DNA from: Alphaproteobacteria bacterium
Lineage (GTDB): Bacteria; Pseudomonadota; Alphaproteobacteria; Rs-D84
Assembly: GCA_031555055.1 (NCBI GenBank)
Contig: JAVBUT010000008.1
Coordinates: 3,354 to 67,353, forward strand
DNA: 64,000 nucleotides
Direction: 5' to 3'
Shown here piece after piece: positions 6,896 through 40,410 of the stretch (position 1 is its first letter; every line of letters begins with the position of its first letter). The notes under the pieces are model-generated. The model made no database searches. It was not told where the DNA came from and was given only the letters and a program-made list of their open reading frames with translations. Position numbers and translations under genes: made by a program.

Positions 6896-7000
6896 AATTC
6901 CCGCGTCCTGCCCCCCTACAAAACCTGCTGGATTTTGTGGGGTGGTCCAGGCTGGAATCCCTTGTATAAAAAAACCGGCCACTCGGCCGGTTTTTATACT

Positions 7001-7140
7001 GTAGGGGCGCATATTTGCGCCCAAGGTAGCGCAACTGCGTCCAACGGTTGCGAAAAGGACAAGGTCGCCCCACCTGGCTGAGATGGGCGTAGGGGCGGAT
7101 CGTATTCGCCCAAGTGGGGCGCGTTTCCACGCGCCCCTAT
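7001..7140. repeat. REP-like GC hairpins (TAGGGGCGC...GCGCCCCTA family), one single and one double unit
   Basis: GTAGGGGCGCATATTTGCGCCC at 7001-7022. GTAGGGGCGGATCGTATTCGCCCAAGTGGGGCGCGTTTCCACGCGCCCCTAT at 7089-7140. Confidence 0.85.
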
Positions 7141-10463: not shown

Positions 10464-11531
10464 TTACTCTGTATCGCGCAGTTTTGCTTTGATCGCGGCG
10501 GTACTGTCGACCCAATCGCGTATTTGTTCTTTGAAGTTCGCGCCGGACAGATCGACCGCATATTTGATCGAATTCGCAAAGGCCAGCGCATCGCTGTTAC
10601 CATGCGTTTTTACCGCGAATCCGTTCAGCCCCAAAAACACGGCGCCCGCATATGAACGCGGATCGATTTTATGCTTTAATCTTTTGAATACATGGACCAG
10701 GAAAAACGCGCCGATAATCGCCAGAATGGATTTCTTTAAATTATCCACCAGAACACGTTTGATCAATCTGGCGGTGCCTTCGATCGTTTTCAGCACGATA
10801 TTGCCTGTAAAGCCGTCGGTTACGACAACGTGCACGTTTCCGCCACCGATATCGTTTCCTTCGACAAAGCCGATATAATCATACGGCAATTTGTCTTTAT
10901 GTTCCGTCAACAGCTTGTTCAATCTCTGCAGGGTTTCGTTACCCTTGGTTTCTTCTTCGCCAATATTTAAAATACCAACGCGCGGATGGTGCATTTTTCC
11001 GATAACGTCGGCATAAACCCCACCCAGCAAAGCGAAATCAAACAGCACTTCTTCGTCGCACTGGACATTCGCCCCCAGGTCCAAAATAACAACACGCTGG
11101 TCCCCGCCACCGGAAGGCATCATTGTTGTGATCGCCGGGCGTGATATTCCGTCGATTGTCTTCAGCGCCAGTTTCGACAGCGCCATCAGAACACCGGTGT
11201 TACCCGCGCTGACCACGGCGGAAGAATTTCCTTCGCGCACATCCTTGATCGCCATGTACATGGAAGTGTTTTGCGCATTGCGGATAACATCGCGGACTTT
11301 GTCGTTGCCACGGATAACGTCAGGCGCATGAATAACCTCGCAATTACGGGCGACGCGCGGATATTTTTTCATCAGCCCGCGCAGAATTTTTTCATTGCCA
11401 AAGACGCGGAAAAACACGCCGTTCTCGCCATTTTGAAACAAGAACTGGTTCATGCCGCCCAATACGGCCACAGGCGCCTTGTCGCCGCCCATCGCATCAA
11501 TAGAGATGATTTTTTTGTTGTCGTTTGACAT
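10464..11531 (-). CDS. plsX: Phosphate acyltransferase PlsX
   Basis: IISIDAMGGDKAPVAVLGG, NIGEEETKGNE, DGFTGNIVLKTIEG. Start taken at MSNDNKK. Confidence 0.92.
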   Translation of the reverse strand: MSNDNKKIISIDAMGGDKAPVAVLGGMNQFLFQNGENGVFFRVFGNEKILRGLMKKYPRVARNCEVIHAPDVIRGNDKVRDVIRNAQNTSMYMAIKDVREGNSSAVVSAGNTGVLMALSKLALKTIDGISRPAITTMMPSGGGDQRVVILDLGANVQCDEEVLFDFALLGGVYADVIGKMHHPRVGILNIGEEETKGNETLQRLNKLLTEHKDKLPYDYIGFVEGNDIGGGNVHVVVTDGFTGNIVLKTIEGTARLIKRVLVDNLKKSILAIIGAFFLVHVFKRLKHKIDPRSYAGAVFLGLNGFAVKTHGNSDALAFANSIKYAVDLSGANFKEQIRDWVDSTAAIKAKLRDTE

Positions 11532-11543
11532 TGTATAATAAAA

Positions 11544-11622
11544 ATAACAATTAACATTTAACAAATAACAATTACAAAAGCAAGCCCCGGTAATTGTTAA
11601 ATGTTATTTGTTAATTGTTAAT
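11544..11622. repeat. Periodic hairpin, TAACAAT 7-mer family
   Basis: Arm ATAACAATTAACATTTAACAAATAACAATTAC and arm GTAATTGTTAAATGTTATTTGTTAATTGTTAAT. Fills the rpmF/plsX gap. Confidence 0.9.
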
Positions 11623-11771
11623 TATTTCGTTCCGCAAGCGGCGCAAACGTGATGCGGACGCTTTTTTTCACCGCATTTTTTACACAACGACGACGGCATG
11701 ATTGCGATCGCGTCGTGTGCGCGGCGCTGTGCGCTGCGTGCTTTGCTTGTTTTCTTTTTTGGTACTGCCAT
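11622..11771 (-). CDS. rpmF: 50S ribosomal protein L32 (49 aa, below the ORF-track cutoff)
   Basis: Hand translation gives MAVPKKKTSKARSAQRRAHDAIAIMPSSLCKKCGEKKRPHHVCAACGTK. Canonical position upstream of plsX. Confidence 0.88.
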   Translation of the reverse strand: MAVPKKKTSKARSAQRRAHDAIAIMPSSLCKKCGEKKRPHHVCAACGTK

Positions 11772-12368: not shown

Positions 12369-16478
<4,110 letters not shown>

Positions 16479-16496
16479 TTATTTTACTCCTTGTTA

Positions 16497-16557
16497 ATCG
16501 TGATTCGTGAACCGTGATTCGTGACTCGAATTACGAATCACGAATTACGAATCACGA

Positions 16558-16558
<1 letters not shown>
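16497..16558. repeat. Periodic hairpin, GTGATTC 7-mer family
   Basis: ATCGTGATTCGTGAACCGTGATTCGTGACTCG / AATTACGAATCACGAATTACGAATCACGAC. Fills the rpoB/rpoC gap. Confidence 0.9.
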
Positions 16559-20694
<4,136 letters not shown>

Positions 20695-22047: not shown

Positions 22048-22108
22048 ACGTGACTCGTAATTCGTGATTCGTAATTCGAGTTACGATTCACGAGTCACGA
22101 ATTACGAC
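22048..22108. repeat. Periodic hairpin, GTGATTC 7-mer family
   Basis: ACGTGACTCGTAATTCGTGATTCGTAATTCG / AGTTACGATTCACGAGTCACGAATTACGAC. Abuts the rplA TAG stop. Confidence 0.9.
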
Positions 22109-23232: not shown

Positions 23233-23378
23233 TTATTTCTGATTTATGATTTCTGATTTCTGATTTGAATCAGACCATAATCATCATCAGGATTAGAGTT
23301 TGTGGTGCGATGTTGGCACATCTTCCACGCTTTTTTCGATCTATGAAATCAGAAATCCGAAATCATAAATCAGAAATC
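23233..23378. repeat. Periodic hairpin, TCTGATT 7-mer family, about 34-nt arms with about 70-nt loop
   Basis: TTATTTCTGATTTATGATTTCTGATTTCTGATTT ... GAAATCAGAAATCCGAAATCATAAATCAGAAATC. Fills the nusG/rplK gap. Confidence 0.88.
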
Positions 23379-24210: not shown

Positions 24211-24284
24211 TGGCAGGGGCAGAAGGAATCGAACCCTCATCAGCGGTTTTGGAGACCGTTATTCTACCATTGAACCATGCCCCT
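24211..24284 (-). tRNA. tRNA-Trp (anticodon CCA)
   Basis: Reverse complement is AGGGGCATGGTTCAATGGTAGAATAACGGTCTCCAAAACCGCTGATGAGGGTTCGATTCCTTCTGCCCCTGCCA. Canonical position upstream of secE. Confidence 0.9.
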
Positions 24285-24459
24285 TCAAACGGCTTTCAGC
24301 GGCAAAAAACCAGCCAGAATCAATAAACTATTGTCTGTCGGATATCTGCCAAAACGCTGGATTTCTGACCCATCGCTCGCGCTAATTTATCACAGTTTTC
24401 AGAAAAATCAAGCGGAAAGTATTATAAAGCTTCCGTCTTTTCGACGCAAGTGGTTTTTT

Positions 24460-24620
24460 AGGGATCAGGAATCAGTCAAAAGGAATCAGGAATTAGTAGG
24501 GGCGCATATTTGCGCCCTCTTTATTTTTGACTGGATTGCCACGTCGCTGACGCTCCTCGCAAAGACGGATTTGTGCTTAATCGCTAATTCCTATCGACTA
24601 ATTCCTAATTCCTGATTCCT
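24460..24620. repeat. Composite: TGATTCC-family periodic hairpin with two other palindromic elements nested in its loop
   Basis: Arms at 24460-24496 and 24582-24620. REP TAGGGGCGCATATTTGCGCCC at 24495-24517. GACTGGATTGCC..CTCGCAAAGACGG element at 24529-24568. Confidence 0.85.
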
Positions 24621-24686
24621 AAAAAAAAGGCTTGCGCCGGCAATGGCTTTTTTTCTACAATCGGTTAACAGGAGAGATTTTGCAGT

Positions 24687-25352
24687 ATGGCAGATAGCGT
24701 AGAACCACCGGTTTTGCTGTCCAGATTGATGACATTTGTATTCGCGGCCGCGGCCGTGGTTGTTGTCGTATTGATTGTGACTTTGGCGAAAATGTATCCG
24801 CTGAACCGGACCCAGGTATTTTTTTTGACGACACAACCGCGCAACGATCTGGAAATAAAACTGTCTTCTTTTTCGCCCGACACCCAGAATCTGGAAACCT
24901 ATAAACAAGCCTTTGTCAAAGAATACATCAAGGCACGCAACGAAATCATTCCGAACGCCGGTGTAATGCAGAACAAATGGAACACTTCTGGAACTGTTTA
25001 CATGTGGTCCACGCCAGAAATATACGACGCATTCGCGCAAACCGCGATGTGGACGGCGTACATGAATGACATACCTGATTTCGAATTCAGATGCCCTGTG
25101 GAATTCACAGGTGTCACGTTGCGCACTGAAAACACATACGCCGTAAAATTCAAGTATTTTTGCACAAATAGTAATGGACAAGACGGTGGCGAAAATTCTA
25201 CAATCACTGTGAAAAAGGACTATACGATTGTTGTTCGGTTGCAAATCGAAGATACGATCAAATGGACAGACCGATTACAAAACCCACTGGGGCTGCGGGT
25301 TTCCGGATACACGATCGAATCCGGCGACGGCGATCCACTTGATTTCAAGTAA
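24687..25352 (+). CDS. virB8: Type IV secretion system protein VirB8 family
   Basis: Short N-terminus, one TM segment (FVFAAAAVVVVVLIVTLA), periplasmic domain ending in the family hallmark NPLGLRVSGYTIES. RBS AGGAGAG. Confidence 0.8.
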   Translation: MADSVEPPVLLSRLMTFVFAAAAVVVVVLIVTLAKMYPLNRTQVFFLTTQPRNDLEIKLSSFSPDTQNLETYKQAFVKEYIKARNEIIPNAGVMQNKWNTSGTVYMWSTPEIYDAFAQTAMWTAYMNDIPDFEFRCPVEFTGVTLRTENTYAVKFKYFCTNSNGQDGGENSTITVKKDYTIVVRLQIEDTIKWTDRLQNPLGLRVSGYTIESGDGDPLDFK

Positions 25353-25357
25353 AACTT

Positions 25358-25508
25358 GGGATCAAAATGAAAAATGAAAAATGAAGAATGAAAAATTAGA
25401 TTCATTTATCATGACATTTTTCTCAAGACAAGGAAACAGGTAAACAAAGATGAACAAACTAATTAAATCATTTTTCATTCTTCATTTTTCATTTTTCATT
25501 TTGATCCC
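25358..25508. repeat. Perfect 39-bp inverted repeat (AATGAAA 7-mer family) with a 73-nt loop holding the virB9 RBS and ATG
   Basis: GGGATCAAAATGAAAAATGAAAAATGAAGAATGAAAAAT (25358-25396) is the exact reverse complement of 25470-25508. Confidence 0.95.
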
Positions 25509-26925
25509 ATTTGTATGCAATGCAAATGGCGTGCAAGAGGCTTGGGATAACCCGAACGCCAACATGGCCGCTGGTTCTGTAAAACCCGGATATGCCCAGC
25601 TGACCTGGTCGACGGGCGCGGTTCTGCCTATCAAATTGCGCAACGGAATGGTCACCATGGTAAATCTGCCCAATGGCGAAGAGATCGTCGACGGCGTTGT
25701 CGGAAACCAGGATTTGTTCGACTTTGATCCGCAAAAAAACGGGCGCAGCATGTTCATAACCCCCGCCGGCAGCAATCAGGGTGCAGACACTAATCTGATC
25801 GTAACCGGAAAATCCGGAAACAAATATATTTTCTATCTGCGCAGCGAGCCCGCCAACAGCTCTGAGATCACATATTCCCAGGTTGATATCGTACTGGACG
25901 GAAACTCTACACTGCCCGGCACAACCGGCTCTAATGCACAGTACGCCGGCATGAATTCCATATTTAAAAAGGCTTCCACTGGCGCCGGCAGCATGGTTGG
26001 CGTTGACGGCGAAGATTACGGCTGGATAAAATCGATGAAAATCGATCCGTCGGAATTCCGTTTCGATCTGGACATATTCGTTCCAAATCCGGACGACTAT
26101 GTAATCGCACCGGAACGCGTGTGGCGTGATAGAATCTTTACATACATTGACTTTGGCGACAAGGTTATCGCAATGACCCAGCGTCCTGTTGTATCGCTGT
26201 TGGTCGAAGGCGGCGAATCCCCGGTCGGATTCCGCACAGACGGCCAAGACGGCAGACTGTTGATAGTAGAAGCCGTGGGCGACATGGTTCTGCGCAGTGG
26301 ACAACGTATCGTATGCATCAAGAAACGTGAAAAGCCGTTCCTGATCGCGGATACCAACAGCGTTATGGCCCTGGCCGAAGCGAACGTCGCACGCAGCATG
26401 ATGTCCAGCCAATCGCTGAACAATGTCGCATACGGCGATATGCAGATGACACAGACACTGGGCGTGCAACAAATGGGCTATGGATATGCCGCACCGATGA
26501 TGATGCCGACATCCGGAACATACGGTGGATCAACGACGGCCGGCCTGGTGATGATACCGACAGAAAGAAACACAGCCGGCGCATATCTGCCACAAACAAA
26601 CATTCCGCTGATCAGCAGCAACCAAGCCGGTGTCGCGGTTGAATTAAAATCCGACACATCAGTCAAGGCATTGAATGATTACTGGACAGGATTATTGGCA
26701 AAGTTCAGCGGCGATGACGGCAAAGGCGTTCTGACGCCATACAAGAACAGCGTGTTCTTTGCGGTTGATGAACAAGGCGTCGGCGATCTGGGCGACGCTG
26801 CGACATCTGCGCGCCTGTACCGTCTGCGTATCGGTCCGATGTCTGATATCGACAGCGCACAAAAACTGTGCGACCAACTGTTAAAGTTCAGCGGCGCCAG
26901 CTGTCACGTGGTGAGAATACAATAA
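25450..26925 (+). CDS. virB9: VirB9/CagX/TrbG-family T4SS protein with C-terminal SPOR domain
   Basis: Signal peptide MNKLIKSFFILHFSFFILIPFVCNA. VTMVNLPNGEEIVDGVVGNQDLFDFD...TNLIVTGKSGNKYIFYLRS (VirB9 N-domain). RIFTYIDFGDKV...PVVSLLVEGGESPVGFR (C-domain). Tail LYRLRIGPMSDIDSAQKLCDQLLKFSGASCHVV (SPOR-like). Confidence 0.85.
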   Translation: MNKLIKSFFILHFSFFILIPFVCNANGVQEAWDNPNANMAAGSVKPGYAQLTWSTGAVLPIKLRNGMVTMVNLPNGEEIVDGVVGNQDLFDFDPQKNGRSMFITPAGSNQGADTNLIVTGKSGNKYIFYLRSEPANSSEITYSQVDIVLDGNSTLPGTTGSNAQYAGMNSIFKKASTGAGSMVGVDGEDYGWIKSMKIDPSEFRFDLDIFVPNPDDYVIAPERVWRDRIFTYIDFGDKVIAMTQRPVVSLLVEGGESPVGFRTDGQDGRLLIVEAVGDMVLRSGQRIVCIKKREKPFLIADTNSVMALAEANVARSMMSSQSLNNVAYGDMQMTQTLGVQQMGYGYAAPMMMPTSGTYGGSTTAGLVMIPTERNTAGAYLPQTNIPLISSNQAGVAVELKSDTSVKALNDYWTGLLAKFSGDDGKGVLTPYKNSVFFAVDEQGVGDLGDAATSARLYRLRIGPMSDIDSAQKLCDQLLKFSGASCHVVRIQ

Positions 26926-26984
26926 ACGTGAAACGTGAATCGTGAATCGTAATTCGAATCACGAGTCACGAATCACGAATTACG
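26926..26984. repeat. Periodic hairpin, GTGATTC/GTGAATC 7-mer family
   Basis: ACGTGAAACGTGAATCGTGAATCGTAATTCG / AATCACGAGTCACGAATCACGAATTACG. Fills the virB9/virB10 gap. Confidence 0.9.
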
Positions 26985-26989
26985 AAAAA

Positions 26990-29892: not shown

Positions 29893-29990
29893 AGTCAATA
29901 GTCACTAGTCAATAGTCAATAGTCATTAGTAATTTAACTATTAAGCACCGCTAACGACTATTGACTATTGACTAGTGACTATTGACTAAG
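29893..29990. repeat. Periodic hairpin, GTCAATA 7-mer family
   Basis: AGTCAATAGTCACTAGTCAATAGTCAATAGTCATTAGT ... ACTATTGACTATTGACTAGTGACTATTGACTAAG. Confidence 0.9.
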
Positions 29991-29998
29991 GACTGTAA

Positions 29999-30377
29999 AA
30001 TGCTTATCGGATTTACACACAAAACTTCAAAGATTCTGCCGCGGATTTTATGCCGGCGGTTCCGGCATTGCGCGGTTGTTATAAATAAAAAACGAAAAAT
30101 GAAAAATGAAAAATGTTTTGTTATGTACCAAGTTGGCAAAGGATCAATAAAACAAATCCCATTGTCTGCGCGCGATTTGAAAATCCTAGAGCAACACGGC
30201 TGGGTGTTTATAGATTATACAACCTTGTCCCCGTATTGCCTTGGCCCGGCCCTGTCCCGCCATTATACATGCGTTGGATTCGCCAAACATATTTTAGAAA
30301 TCCGCGATCCTTTTATAATCACCCCGGACCAGTTGTATAAAAAATTAGCACATGGTGCACAGCGATTAGAATATTGA
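29999..30377 (+). CDS. Hypothetical protein (125 aa) with an in-frame AATGAAA repeat
   Basis: MLIGFTHKTSKILPRILCRRFRHCAVV... The KKRKMKNEKC segment is encoded by CGAAAAATGAAAAATGAAAAATG (30091-30115). Confidence 0.5.
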
Positions 30378-32574: not shown

Positions 32575-32635
32575 CTCGTGATTCGTGATTCGTGATTCGT
32601 GACTCGAATTACGAATCACAAATTACGGTTCACGA
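32575..32635. repeat. Periodic hairpin, GTGATTC 7-mer family
   Basis: CTCGTGATTCGTGATTCGTGATTCGTGACTCG / AATTACGAATCACAAATTACGGTTCACGA. The right arm contains the lspA TGA stop. Confidence 0.9.
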
Positions 32636-35152: not shown

Positions 35153-35989
35153 CTACAATTTTTCTGCAATTTCTGCGAACTTTTCCGGTGATAGCTCTTC
35201 GGCACGCTCACGTCCGCTCAGACCAAACTGTGACCAATCGACGCCGGGCATAATTCCGCGAATCATCTTGCGCCGCTGGCCGAACAGTTTCGCGGTCAAG
35301 GCTTCGATTTTTTCTAATTCCTGATTCCTGGCTGCTGATTCCTTGGGCACAATCTGCACAACAGCACTTTGCACCTTGGGCGCGGGAAAGAATGCGGTGT
35401 TCGGAACATTGAATAAAATCCGTGCGTCCGCGACCATTGCCGTCAAAACCGCCAAGCGACCGTAATGTTCGTCACCGACGCGCGCGACAATACGCATCGC
35501 CACTTCGCGTTGGAACATCAAGGTCAATGACGTGATTCGTGATTCGTGATTCGTGATTCGTTCTGCCATAATATGCAACCACCTTATCAACAGTTCCGTA
35601 CCAACATTGTACGGCAGATTGGAACAAACCGCCCAGTTCCCGGTTCCGAATTCCCAGTCCCCATTTTTCAACGCATCGCCAAAAATAATTTCCAAGCGAC
35701 CGTCGGCGGCCATGGCGATTTTTTCCAATATCGGCGCAGTGGCTTTATCCTTTTCAATCGCGATTACATGTTTTGCACCCGCCAATAATAAAGCGCGCGT
35801 CAAACCACCCGGGCCCGGCCCAACTTCGACCACGGTAATATTTTCAATATCCGGCACGGCGCGTGCGATCTTGCCCGTCAGATTCAAATCAAACAGGAAA
35901 TTCTGGCCGAATTGCTTTTTCGGTTCCAACCCCGCGTCACGCATCATTTCCGACACCGGCGGCAATGATTCTAATTGTTTATTTACCAT
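35153..35989 (-). CDS. rsmA: 16S rRNA (adenine1518/1519-N6)-dimethyltransferase
   Basis: KKQFGQNFLFD, VVEVGPGPGGLT, SNLPYNVGT, LMFQREVA, FFPAPKV. Carries two in-frame 7-mer repeat tracts. Confidence 0.9.
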   Translation of the reverse strand: MVNKQLESLPPVSEMMRDAGLEPKKQFGQNFLFDLNLTGKIARAVPDIENITVVEVGPGPGGLTRALLLAGAKHVIAIEKDKATAPILEKIAMAADGRLEIIFGDALKNGDWEFGTGNWAVCSNLPYNVGTELLIRWLHIMAERITNHESRITSLTLMFQREVAMRIVARVGDEHYGRLAVLTAMVADARILFNVPNTAFFPAPKVQSAVVQIVPKESAARNQELEKIEALTAKLFGQRRKMIRGIMPGVDWSQFGLSGRERAEELSPEKFAEIAEKL

Positions 35990-37277: not shown

Positions 37278-38399
37278 TTAATGAAACACATAGCTGTCAA
37301 TGCCGGTGGCGCTGGCATTATTTTTTAATTTTTGGGCCGATCCTTCGGACAATCCGTTTGCGCGCACGCGAAACATCCCATTGGGCGCCTGCTCTATCAT
37401 TGTGCTGACCCCCAGTGCATTTTTAACTTTATTCTGCTGGGCGGTGGCGGCCGATTTGGATGAAAATGCGCCGAACTGGACCCCGGAACCGCCGGATTGC
37501 ACCGTGACCGGCACGGGTGTCTTTTGCGGCGGTGGCGCAGAATAAGCTTCTTCATCAGTTTCGTCATCATAAGAATATTTCTGCAACGTCGGTGCGGCGC
37601 CAACCTTGACCAGTTCGAATCCCTTGTTCAGCATGCGGACAGACGCCGCCGCGCGAACATCCTTGGTGGACGCGCCCAGGACGACGGACATCAAGTGTTT
37701 GTTTCCGCGCCGCGCCGTCGCAACCAGCGAATATTTCGACTTGTTCGTGTATCCGGTTTTCATACCGTCACAGCCCGGATAAGTTTCCAGCAACCGATTT
37801 CCGTTATTGTATGTTTTGCCATTATACGTCCATGACTTGATTCCGAAATATTTCCAGTATTGCGGAAAATGTTTATACACTGCCATAGACAGCAACGCGA
37901 TATCGCGCGCCGTCGACAAATGATCATCGTCCGGCAGACCGGACGAATTCGCAAAGTTTGTCTTCGACAGTCCGATTTCGTTCGCGACATGCGTCATCAG
38001 CGACGCAAAGTTTCCTTCTTTGCCACCCTTTAAATTTTCGGCCAGCACGCGCGCAACGTCGTTCGCGCTGTGCACGGCAAGCGCCTTGATCGCGTCTTCG
38101 ACCTTGATCTTTGATCCCGCGGCCAGCCCCAGTTTAACCGGCGACGCATTCGCGGCGGATTGCGACACGATCAGATAATCATCCAAGTGCAAGCGTCCGT
38201 GTTCCAGCGCGTCGAACGTCAGATACAGCGTCATAATTTTGGTCAATGACGCCGGATAGTTCAGATCGCTGGCGTTTTCCTGGTACAGTACCTGGCCGGT
38301 ATCCATATCCGCGACCAAGGCCGCCCGATAATCCGCAGCATGCGCCACAGAAATGAAAAATGAAAAATGAAGAATGAAAAATGTAATTAGTTTTCTCAT
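37278..38399 (-). CDS. D-alanyl-D-alanine carboxypeptidase (S11, PBP5/6-like) with C-terminal SPOR domain
   Basis: SLTK, HSAN and KTGYT active-site motifs. Tail VQFGAFSSKSAATAQ...MFRVRANGLSEGSAQKL. Signal peptide MRKLITFFILHFSFFISVAHA. Confidence 0.88.
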   Translation of the reverse strand: MRKLITFFILHFSFFISVAHAADYRAALVADMDTGQVLYQENASDLNYPASLTKIMTLYLTFDALEHGRLHLDDYLIVSQSAANASPVKLGLAAGSKIKVEDAIKALAVHSANDVARVLAENLKGGKEGNFASLMTHVANEIGLSKTNFANSSGLPDDDHLSTARDIALLSMAVYKHFPQYWKYFGIKSWTYNGKTYNNGNRLLETYPGCDGMKTGYTNKSKYSLVATARRGNKHLMSVVLGASTKDVRAAASVRMLNKGFELVKVGAAPTLQKYSYDDETDEEAYSAPPPQKTPVPVTVQSGGSGVQFGAFSSKSAATAQQNKVKNALGVSTMIEQAPNGMFRVRANGLSEGSAQKLKNNASATGIDSYVFH

Positions 38400-38485
38400 G
38401 AACAAAATGATACAAAAAATTCGACACACGGGTCAATGGATAAAACAGTATTAATTTTTCATTCTTCATTTTTCATTTTTCATTT
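38351..38485. repeat. Perfect 32-bp inverted repeat (AATGAAA family) with a 71-nt loop holding the dac start codon
   Basis: AAATGAAAAATGAAAAATGAAGAATGAAAAAT (38351-38382) is the exact reverse complement of 38454-38485. Confidence 0.95.
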
Positions 38486-38486
38486 A

Positions 38487-38508
38487 AAAACGCCCCGTGG
38501 GGCGTTTT
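38487..38508 (-). terminator. Terminator downstream of pyk (bidirectional shape)
   Basis: AAAACGCCCC-GTG-GGGCGTTTT with A/T runs on both sides. Confidence 0.65.
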
Positions 38509-38613
38509 CGAAAATCAAAGAGAACGCTACAGATGTGCGGGTTTGATGCAGGGAGTGTATTGGACATACATGACCGGAATCAAACGCGTGCAGATGTACC
38601 GTTATATTTGATT

Positions 38614-40100: not shown

Positions 40101-40349
40101 ATGAAACAAGCAAACCACGGTGCTATTGATAACTCTCAATTAATCACGATTATTGAACGCATTGAAAAGCTGAACGAAGACACCGCAAACATCGCGGCTG
40201 ACATCAAGGAAATTTTTTCCGAAGCGAAATCCGCCGGATTCGATCCAAAATATATCCGCCAGATGATCAGACTGCGCAAGCTGGACCCGGACGAATTGGA
40301 CGAACAGGACGAACTGGTCCAGATGTACCGCAAGGCATTGGGGATTTAA
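40101..40349 (+). CDS. gapR: DUF2312/GapR-family nucleoid-associated protein
   Basis: QLITIIERIEKLNEDTANIAADIKEIFSEAKSAGFDPKYIRQMIRLRK matches the GapR pattern. Confidence 0.8.
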   Translation: MKQANHGAIDNSQLITIIERIEKLNEDTANIAADIKEIFSEAKSAGFDPKYIRQMIRLRKLDPDELDEQDELVQMYRKALGI

Positions 40350-40410
40350 TGTTCAAAGTGCAAAGTGCAAAGTTCAATTAATTGCACTTTGAACTTTGAA
40401 CATTGAACAT
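40350..40410. repeat. Periodic hairpin, TGCAAAG/TTCAAAG 7-mer family
   Basis: TGTTCAAAGTGCAAAGTGCAAAGTTCAATT / AATTGCACTTTGAACTTTGAACATTGAACA. Occupies the whole 63-nt spacer. Confidence 0.9.

Follow-up and report, generated by a model that had tools for sequence, protein, structure and literature searches.

How did the hydrophobic core of the VirB9 signal peptide come to be encoded by one arm of a perfect inverted repeat, and why is the same arrangement found at an unrelated DD-carboxypeptidase gene? The question is raised by a stretch of 64,000 nucleotides (nt) of contig JAVBUT010000008.1 from an uncultured alphaproteobacterium (assembly GCA_031555055.1, lineage Rs-D84), hereafter called the window, in which virB9 (25450-26925, plus strand) and the DD-carboxypeptidase gene dac (37278-38399, minus strand) both begin inside a hairpin whose arms consist of tandem 7-nt units. 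The answer that we consider probable is that inverted heptamer arrays, members of a population specific to this lineage, overwrote the hydrophobic segments (h-regions) of two signal peptides, and that concerted evolution keeps the arms alike.

The virB9 gene encodes a protein of 491 amino acids with a Pfam CagX/VirB9 domain and a C-terminal SPOR domain, and is located between virB8 (24687-25352, plus strand), the cistron upstream, and a TrbI/VirB10 gene on the other side. The arms of its hairpin (25357-25396 and 25470-25509, plus strand) measure 40 nt each, are 100% complementary and lie 73 nt apart. Each is made of 4.7 tandem heptamers, AAAATGA in the upstream arm and TCATTTT in the coding arm, together with a unique segment, TGGGATC ahead of the upstream array and GATCCCA after the coding one. 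The upstream arm begins 5 nt past the virB8 stop codon, in a virB8-virB9 spacer of 97 nt, and its sense strand carries a stop codon in all frames. The loop (25397-25469) holds a weak Shine-Dalgarno-like AGG (-12 to -10), the ATG at 25450 and the n-region MNKLIK(S); the coding arm then specifies residues 8-20, FFILHFSFFILIP, that is, the h-region of the predicted signal peptide (25450-25524, cleavage after CNA). The mature protein would start with NGVQEAWDNP, which aligns with the G[VI]Q[ED]AWDNP kept in orthologues.

The hairpin at dac, whose product of 373 amino acids combines a Pfam Peptidase_S11 domain with a C-terminal SPOR domain, has its features on the minus strand. The upstream arm (38454-38485) reads (AAATGAA)n on the dac sense strand, and the coding arm (38351-38382) specifies residues 7-16, FFILHFSFFI, the h-region of the signal peptide MRKLITFFILHFSFFISVAHA, with predicted cleavage before ADYRAALVADMD. 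The two arms are perfect over 32 nt and 71 nt apart, and can be extended to 47 nt at 85% complementarity. The loop (38383-38453) contains, in order, TTGACC (38436-38431), an 18-nt spacer, TATCAT (38412-38407), 7 nt and the ATG (38399-38397), and no Shine-Dalgarno sequence precedes this ATG. The upstream arm lies directly 3' of a stem-loop that ends pyk (38486-38510), GC-rich and followed by a U-run, which is a likely terminator in the RNA fold even if a consensus scan did not call it. As a side observation, SPOR, a peptidoglycan-binding domain, is C-terminal in both proteins (26560-26925 and 37278-37500); the VirB9 match falls just under the Pfam cut-off (20.7 vs 21 bits), and a SPOR-tailed VirB9 seems typical across the whole clade.

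On alignment, the virB9 and dac arms are identical, the single AATGAAG variant included, and all four arms share (AATGAAA)n. In addition, ATGA..AAACTAATTA precedes the coding arm at both loci, while the centres of the two loops are unrelated. A 24-mer from the arm occurs 10 times in the window, where shuffles predict 0.00 occurrences, and the predicted RNA folds reach -60.6 kcal/mol for virB9 and -59.0 kcal/mol for dac (z = -9.3 and -8.4). A chance origin of these inverted repeats is excluded. Several statements of an earlier note, made from the letters alone, are therefore upheld: the perfect inverted repeat at virB9 is real, with arms of 40 rather than 39 nt; its distal arm does encode codons 8-20; dac has the counterpart hairpin, with the arms, the 71-nt loop and the ATG at 38399 that had been described; and the two genes do have DNA in common from the ATG through the arm.

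Why a repeat of this kind can be read as an export signal follows from its arithmetic. Because 7 and 3 are coprime and 21 nt span all frames, a heptamer array gives one and the same cyclic peptide in every frame. The T-rich strand of the present arrays reads cyclic FFI[LF]HFS in any frame with no stop codons, and the unit TTTTTCA, for example, yields FFIFHFS (mean Kyte-Doolittle hydropathy 1.67). All ten units examined behave alike, with cyclic hydrophobic heptapeptides in the sense frames and stop codons in all frames of the complement. Both proteins of the window show the features of a Sec-type signal peptide of the signal peptidase I kind: a net charge of +2 in the first 6 residues, a hydrophobic core of at least 10 residues (maximum 10-residue hydropathy of 2.58 and 2.28) and small residues at -3/-1. 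The latter context, C-N-A in VirB9 and A-H-A in the dac product, stands just before the conserved mature N-termini and aligns with the cleavage region of the orthologues. If translation began at an in-frame start beyond the arm, no signal peptide would remain, and the arrays are in frame in all the VirB9 and dac orthologues examined. From these predicted features it is plausible that the FFI[LF]HFS segment serves as the h-region of a Sec signal peptide and that both proteins are exported through it. To this extent the earlier note was right to see in the distal arm the hydrophobic core of a signal peptide, at virB9 as well as at dac. Its further idea that the repeat also carries the start codon is not supported, as the repeat supplies the h-region only.

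The host origin of the rest is best seen at dac. A promoter-like motif, TTGACC-N18-TAnnnT, is found 6-8 nt before the ATG in six orthologous loci, whether these have arrays or none; the 18-nt spacer ends in a T-run, and no Shine-Dalgarno sequence is present in any of the six. Among them are the array-free locus L209 and locus L210, where a quasi-periodic array survives in decayed form and a partner arm is lacking. The conserved motif suggests a promoter for a leaderless mRNA of this penicillin-binding protein in the lineage. As motif and spacing are kept in all six loci, the dac ATG is a host feature at a fixed position, and, since the predicted promoter sits inside the loop, the upstream arm is probably not part of the dac mRNA.

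At virB9 the comparison covers homologues of 70-84% identity, whose uncultured source genomes bear the label Alphaproteobacteria or Rickettsiales bacterium. These keep the mature end G[VI]Q[ED]AWDNP.ANMA and vary in their signal peptides; several have other cores with a period of 7 residues, which corresponds to 21 nt or three heptamers. None of the listed close orthologues in this identity range has the FFILHFSFFI N-terminus; in other words, the comparison of N-termini proposed by the earlier note finds other N-termini in the listed relatives of VirB9. The first 44 nt of the gene (ATGAACAAACTAATTAAATCATTTTTCATT...) are identical at 38 of 44 positions to locus L121, which has a decayed version of the array with the unit TCATTAT, a match as close as the one they have to dac within their own genome. 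The identity to L121 argues that the virB9 N-terminus, with its TCATTNT-type array, was inherited and not brought in by a cassette.

These comparisons bear directly on the interpretation first given to the locus, namely that a mobile repeat carries a ready-made start codon and signal peptide from gene to gene, with the 32-40-bp stem acting in translational or RNase III control. In its favour are the near-identity of the DNA from the ATG through the arm in two unrelated genes, the great stability of the predicted stems, with the AUG paired within the loop, and the existence in the lineage of whole-hairpin copies, since L121 has a pair of hairpins with homologous loops. Nevertheless, the dac ATG and promoter are kept in array-free relatives, the virB9 n-region is as close to an orthologue as it is to dac, and the loop centres are unrelated; the dac loop contains the predicted promoter. 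Moreover, the mismatches between arms have no sense-strand wobble bias, and RNase III cutting in the stem would cleave coding sequence. A portable start-codon cassette is therefore judged quite unlikely. A protein search with the extended FFILHFS N-terminus matched 15 tiny unannotated open reading frames (ORFs) and is uninformative on portability.

As for the RNA level, the virB9 stem lies within the operon and would form in the polycistronic mRNA, where, in the predicted fold, the virB9 AUG pairs with a mirrored UUCAUUU segment. The 22 arm mismatches counted in 20 hairpins comprise about 5 that are G-U-compatible in the sense RNA, about 4 in the antisense, 1 sense-ambiguous and 12 incompatible; no sense-strand G-U bias is seen among these 22, which are small numbers. 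Even at a permissive threshold, Rfam gave no family above threshold, and only generic hairpin matches (miRNA precursors) appeared below it; the plasmid database had no match to the hairpins. The virB9 hairpin could influence translational coupling or mRNA stability, with no sign of selection on pairing. Any effect of the hairpins on expression appears secondary; at dac, transcription of the gene probably leaves out the upstream arm. Of the translational or RNase III control envisaged by the earlier note, the virB9 half remains conceivable, as its hairpin belongs to an operon, and the dac half is doubtful, as its promoter is predicted within the loop and its transcript would have no upstream arm.

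The two hairpins are not isolated. By one scoring rule the window holds 17 arrays of period 7 and 20 dinucleotide shuffles of it hold none; under the same rule there are 2 arrays of period 6 and none for periods 4, 5 and 8-12. The period-7 arrays reported by Tandem Repeats Finder number in the dozens, have 4-5 copies each and are built from many different units, and more than seven unrelated units coexist within the single window. Inverted pairs of arrays are found at 11549-11623, 16494-16561 and 22055-22107; at 23235-23377, in the nusG-rplK spacer (ATTTCTG arrays, 32-nt arms at 97%, 79-nt loop); at 26924-26986 on the plus strand, between the virB9 stop codon and the likely virB10 start, MKTLKQ (AAACGTG / CGAATCA arrays); at 29893-29987 (AGTCAAT arrays, 37-nt arms at 97%, 21-nt loop); at 32576-32627 on the minus strand, in the lspA-yidC spacer just before the Shine-Dalgarno sequence and ATG of yidC (CGTGATT type); and at 40348-40404. 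Most arrays of the window occupy spacers just before real starts (rplJ, plsX, virB10, yidC, fmt) and few lie in coding sequence. Among the latter are a perfect array in ksgA/rsmA (35531-35561, minus strand), in frame as ..AERITNHESRITS.., and a third AATGAAA array, solitary and degenerate (30083-30115, plus strand), in frame as ..INKKRKMKNEKCF.. in an uncharacterised ORF with no similarity to the neighbouring ORFs of relatives. The class thus has both properties by which heptanucleotide repeats were assessed, a tandem excess over chance and a placement at gene boundaries or before starts, the latter being seen in related loci as well. The virB9 and dac arms belong to a genome-wide, lineage-specific class of heptamer-array palindromes.

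This abundance of units bears on the proposal that a regulator of transcription or translation, acting in trans, binds to the arrays and that their overlap with signal peptides is incidental. Such binding has been suggested for the TAACTGA repeats of Beggiatoaceae and for Nostoc heptamers, and the clustering of arrays just upstream of start codons agrees with published observations (PMC4679880; bioRxiv 10.1101/2022.06.06.494920). However, more than seven unrelated units in one window, and units that differ at orthologous sites, make a sequence-specific binder hard to envisage, so that we regard regulator sites as very unlikely.

The same site in related genomes carries the same layout written with other units. 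In L129 virB9, GGCATAA arrays follow the virB8 stop codon and TTATGCC/TTGTGCC arrays encode LCLVPYALCLVPCAL; in L123, AAGGAAT and CTTATTC arrays are laid out as in the window; L182 has a TATTTGC unit with 29-nt perfect arms and a 61-nt loop, and L200 a CTATGCT unit with 26-nt perfect arms and a 73-nt loop. The array layout is likewise present in L151 and L195. In total, a period-7 array in the signal-peptide region is found in about 12 of 75 virB9 loci and in none of the rest, and at array-free loci no local inverted match exceeds 9 nt. Further period-7 arrays occur at 0.57 per kb around virB9 loci that have the signal-peptide array, against 0 in 343 kb around those that lack it, from which it appears that heptamer proliferation is a trait of particular lineages. 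In the array-free but syntenic relative L208/L209, whose VirB9 is 81% identical, the virB8-virB9 spacer is 23 nt instead of the 97 nt of the window and has a canonical Shine-Dalgarno sequence, and the signal peptides are ordinary, that of VirB9 being MKKLSMIVALFAICALPSSFAWA.

Comparable observations were made at dac. Locus L124 (77% identical) has an AATGAAA hairpin at the matching place, with 31-nt arms at 94% and a 60-nt loop, and just upstream of it a terminator-like stem analogous to that of pyk in the window. Locus L127 has an AAAGAAT/ATTCTTT hairpin (32-nt arms, 89-nt loop), L125 a CATTGTT coding array without a partner arm, and L210 a decayed array. The earlier note had named, as evidence that would speak against it, orthologues with the same N-terminus and no inverted partner. 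This is found in part: L124 combines a nearly identical N-terminus with a partner arm, and L125 has a related array without one.

An indication of how such hairpins come about is given by ksgA. In L127 (13467-13597) and L125 (8705-8836) this gene for a housekeeping methyltransferase contains inverted heptamer arrays with 27-nt arms and loops of 77 and 78 nt. The loops encode the conserved NLPYN catalytic core, the heptamer differs between the two genomes, and the array of the window at 35531-35561 corresponds to one arm of this intragenic hairpin, while an array-free relative has ordinary sequence at both arm sites. Since the arms enclose the conserved NLPYN core, they evidently formed around host DNA that was already there. 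Between lspA and yidC, a hairpin is likewise found both in the window (CGTGATT) and in L127 (16454-16573, AAGTAGG), with unrelated units and with loops of 0 nt and 60 nt, respectively. The cassette reading finds no support here either, as the unrelated loop centres of virB9 and dac, together with arms that flank catalytic-core codons in the ksgA of relatives, do not fit a unit that travels with its own start codon, and neither do a dac ATG and promoter kept in an array-free relative or an inherited virB9 start (its first 44 nt).

A transposable element is decidedly improbable. It might be supposed that a palindromic element resembling a miniature inverted-repeat transposable element (MITE) or a Rickettsia palindromic element (RPE) was inserted at both loci and that one terminal repeat was absorbed into the ORF. 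The size of 135-153 nt with terminal inverted repeats resembles that of small MITEs; in frame within genes, palindromic elements are said to have been described in Rickettsia by Ogata in 2000; and L121 has dispersed copies, two TAGATA-type heptamer hairpins (6927-7048 and 10560-10688) with homologous loops and arms. The L121 pair indicates that some hairpins of the lineage dispersed as whole units; this is not the case for the virB9 and dac pair. Against an element of this type, no target-site duplication (flanking direct repeat) is visible at the virB9 or the dac hairpin, the loops are conserved host sequence with centres not common to the two copies, the heptamers differ at orthologous sites, and neither the plasmid database nor Rfam (nothing above threshold) provided a match. 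In particular, arms that elsewhere flank conserved host DNA, the ksgA core included, argue against a cassette of MITE type.

Taken together with the predicted export signals, these findings are best accommodated by the overwriting of two h-regions by members of a proliferating array population. In this mechanism, a pair of arms, each of about 4-5 copies of a 7-nt unit and either adjacent or 60-90 nt apart, would arise at gene boundaries, enclosing host sequence that was already present. In virB9 and dac, the arm nearer the gene would have fallen in the signal-peptide coding region, overwriting only the h-region; the start codon and n-region, like the cleavage site and the promoter or ribosome-binding site, are ancestral host features. 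Slippage, template switching between arms and gene conversion might then keep the arms complementary and the arrays alike within and between loci, so that arm complementarity would be explicable without selection at the RNA level, and the heptamer would drift between lineages while the layout persists. The repeat may be tolerated as an export signal because such hairpins litter the genomes of the lineage and because an h-region accepts almost any hydrophobic sequence.

Two points weigh against this explanation. The four arms are 100% identical, AATGAAG variant included, and the virB9 stem also runs 7 nt past the array, through TGGGATC/GATCCCA; this would need recent copying or conversion, a process that is not observed directly. 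Moreover, a selected function, such as mRNA processing or insulation, could be the reason why hairpins reappear at the same gene junctions. On the first point, another genome in which virB9 and dac were compared (JAITJD010000011, L210/L211) has arrays that are decayed and unlike each other, which indicates that identity between the two loci is not a general rule. A bolder possibility is that an active, lineage-specific process, going beyond plain polymerase slippage, writes complementary arrays about 60-90 nt apart on either side of existing DNA and homogenises them, within a locus and from one locus to another, while the unit turns over. The hairpins would then be a programmable punctuation of transcripts or DNA, and the coding arms evolvable and possibly switchable export signals, for instance for the VirB9 of a type IV secretion system. 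We hold this to be rather unlikely.

A switch of a more familiar kind would be a contingency locus, in which slippage by 7 nt in the leader-peptide region shifts virB9 or dac out of and into frame. The model for it is Neisseria opa, whose pyrimidine-rich CTCTT leader-peptide repeat encodes a hydrophobic core (PMC3745409). The likeness is real: in two envelope proteins the leader peptide is encoded in part by a repeat, its unit length is not divisible by 3 and hence shifts the frame, and all frames give a hydrophobic peptide. For a leader peptide encoded by a repeat, opa is the closest functional analogue. But opa tracts are long, perfect and demonstrably phase-variable, whereas the arrays of the window are short and imperfect (about 4.7 units with one variant, so that at most 3 perfect copies are contiguous) and have an upstream inverted copy. 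Unlike opa, they belong to a genome-wide class, members of which adjoin or enter housekeeping genes (rplJ, plsX, fmt, yidC, ksgA). Moreover, all orthologues seen are in frame, and L200 and L201 are identical; no polymorphism in copy number or length was seen. Phase variation by slippage is improbable on these grounds.

The perfect inverted repeats of dac might also be thought to let the loop flip and so turn the gene off, as in an invertible promoter. They do flank a promoter-like element, and a mirrored CAT/ATG stands at the inner edge of both arms. On the other hand, the promoter faces the gene in six of six dac loci (weak evidence, with one assembly per lineage), 71 nt is very short for inversion by a recombinase, the inverted-repeat sequences vary between lineages, and a flipped loop would not keep the reading frame of the mature protein. 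Such a device appears extremely unlikely here.

The class described here resembles several known kinds of repeat and differs from each of them. Heptanucleotide arrays near start codons are known from Beggiatoaceae, Cyanobacteria and Bacteroidetes, their mechanism and function being unexplained (PMC4679880; bioRxiv 10.1101/2022.06.06.494920), and heptanucleotide repeats are the commonest class of long simple-sequence repeats (LSSRs) in most surveyed genomes (PMC4679880). Like the short tandemly repeated repetitive (STRR) sequences of cyanobacteria, the TAACTGA repeats and the LSSRs of Mrazek 2007, the present arrays are short tandem 7-nt arrays far above chance and scattered genome-wide, mostly intergenic and often just before starts, with stop codons in all frames of one strand and an occasional in-frame position at protein edges. 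They differ from them in that many units coexist, in that arrays usually form inverted pairs at 60-90-nt or near-zero spacing (MacGregor recorded 1 indirect repeat among 170 sets; PMC4679880), in that pairs hold orthologous sites with different units in related genomes, and in the host, here an uncultured lineage of Alphaproteobacteria known from metagenomes of gut, termite and sludge.

The unit itself is widespread. A scan of genome contigs for (AATGAAR)x3.9 gave at least 120 loci (L001-L120) in many phyla, above all Bacteroidota, but also a metagenome-assembled genome of Acidobacteriota with many copies, Kiritimatiellae, Parabeggiatoa and cyanobacteria. Among the matches listed, the array is often at the 5' end of an ORF, and in L095 (Sulfurovum) it gives MIKRLLSFFIFHFSFFTIVNA|G, apparently a true signal peptide.

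For palindromes within ORFs, the closest analogue is found in other bacteria. In Rickettsia, RPEs are palindromes tolerated in frame inside genes. A palindromic repeat inside ORFs is also represented by QMITE1 of Coxiella (PMC5896051). As with these, the hairpins described here are palindromes of about 100-150 nt in frame at permissive positions, and their host is alphaproteobacterial, but RPEs and MITEs are discrete elements with a conserved internal sequence of their own, whereas here the repeat accounts for the arms alone and the loop belongs to the host (promoter, ribosome-binding site or catalytic-core codons). The stems of repetitive extragenic palindromic (REP) sequences, bacterial interspersed mosaic elements (BIMEs) and Correia-type elements affect mRNA stability or RNase III processing elsewhere. 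The present class resembles them as abundant intergenic inverted repeats at operon junctions with potentially stable RNA stems, and differs in having arms of variable tandem heptamers without a fixed consensus, one of them coding, and, at dac, an upstream arm predicted to be untranscribed.

Heptanucleotide arrays were recognised decades ago in cyanobacteria, Beggiatoaceae and Bacteroidetes, without an accepted account of their origin and function. The present lineage is an unusually clean comparative system, as array-rich and array-free sisters have a common gene order, the hairpin layout is retained at orthologous sites despite a change of unit, and the arms surround a pre-existing promoter, start codon or catalytic core. 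Such contrasts make the origin of the arrays testable. The two loci may also exemplify the rewriting of signal peptides, with their function retained, by repeats of a selfish or mutational kind, which is of relevance for the annotation of gene starts and for signal-peptide prediction in metagenomic genomes.

Some minor observations concern other parts of the window. Upstream of virB8 lies a tRNA gene (24214-24284, minus strand), followed by a divergent spacer of about 400 nt (24285-24686) with further heptamer arrays at 24460-24493 and 24580-24622; an ORF of 112 amino acids called in this spacer is probably spurious. In rpoC (16478-12369, minus strand), an in-frame TAG occurs at 16254-16256, where a conserved Lys is expected, and the frame stays open over a further 1267 codons; a sequencing error, a pseudogene or stop-codon suppression could account for it.

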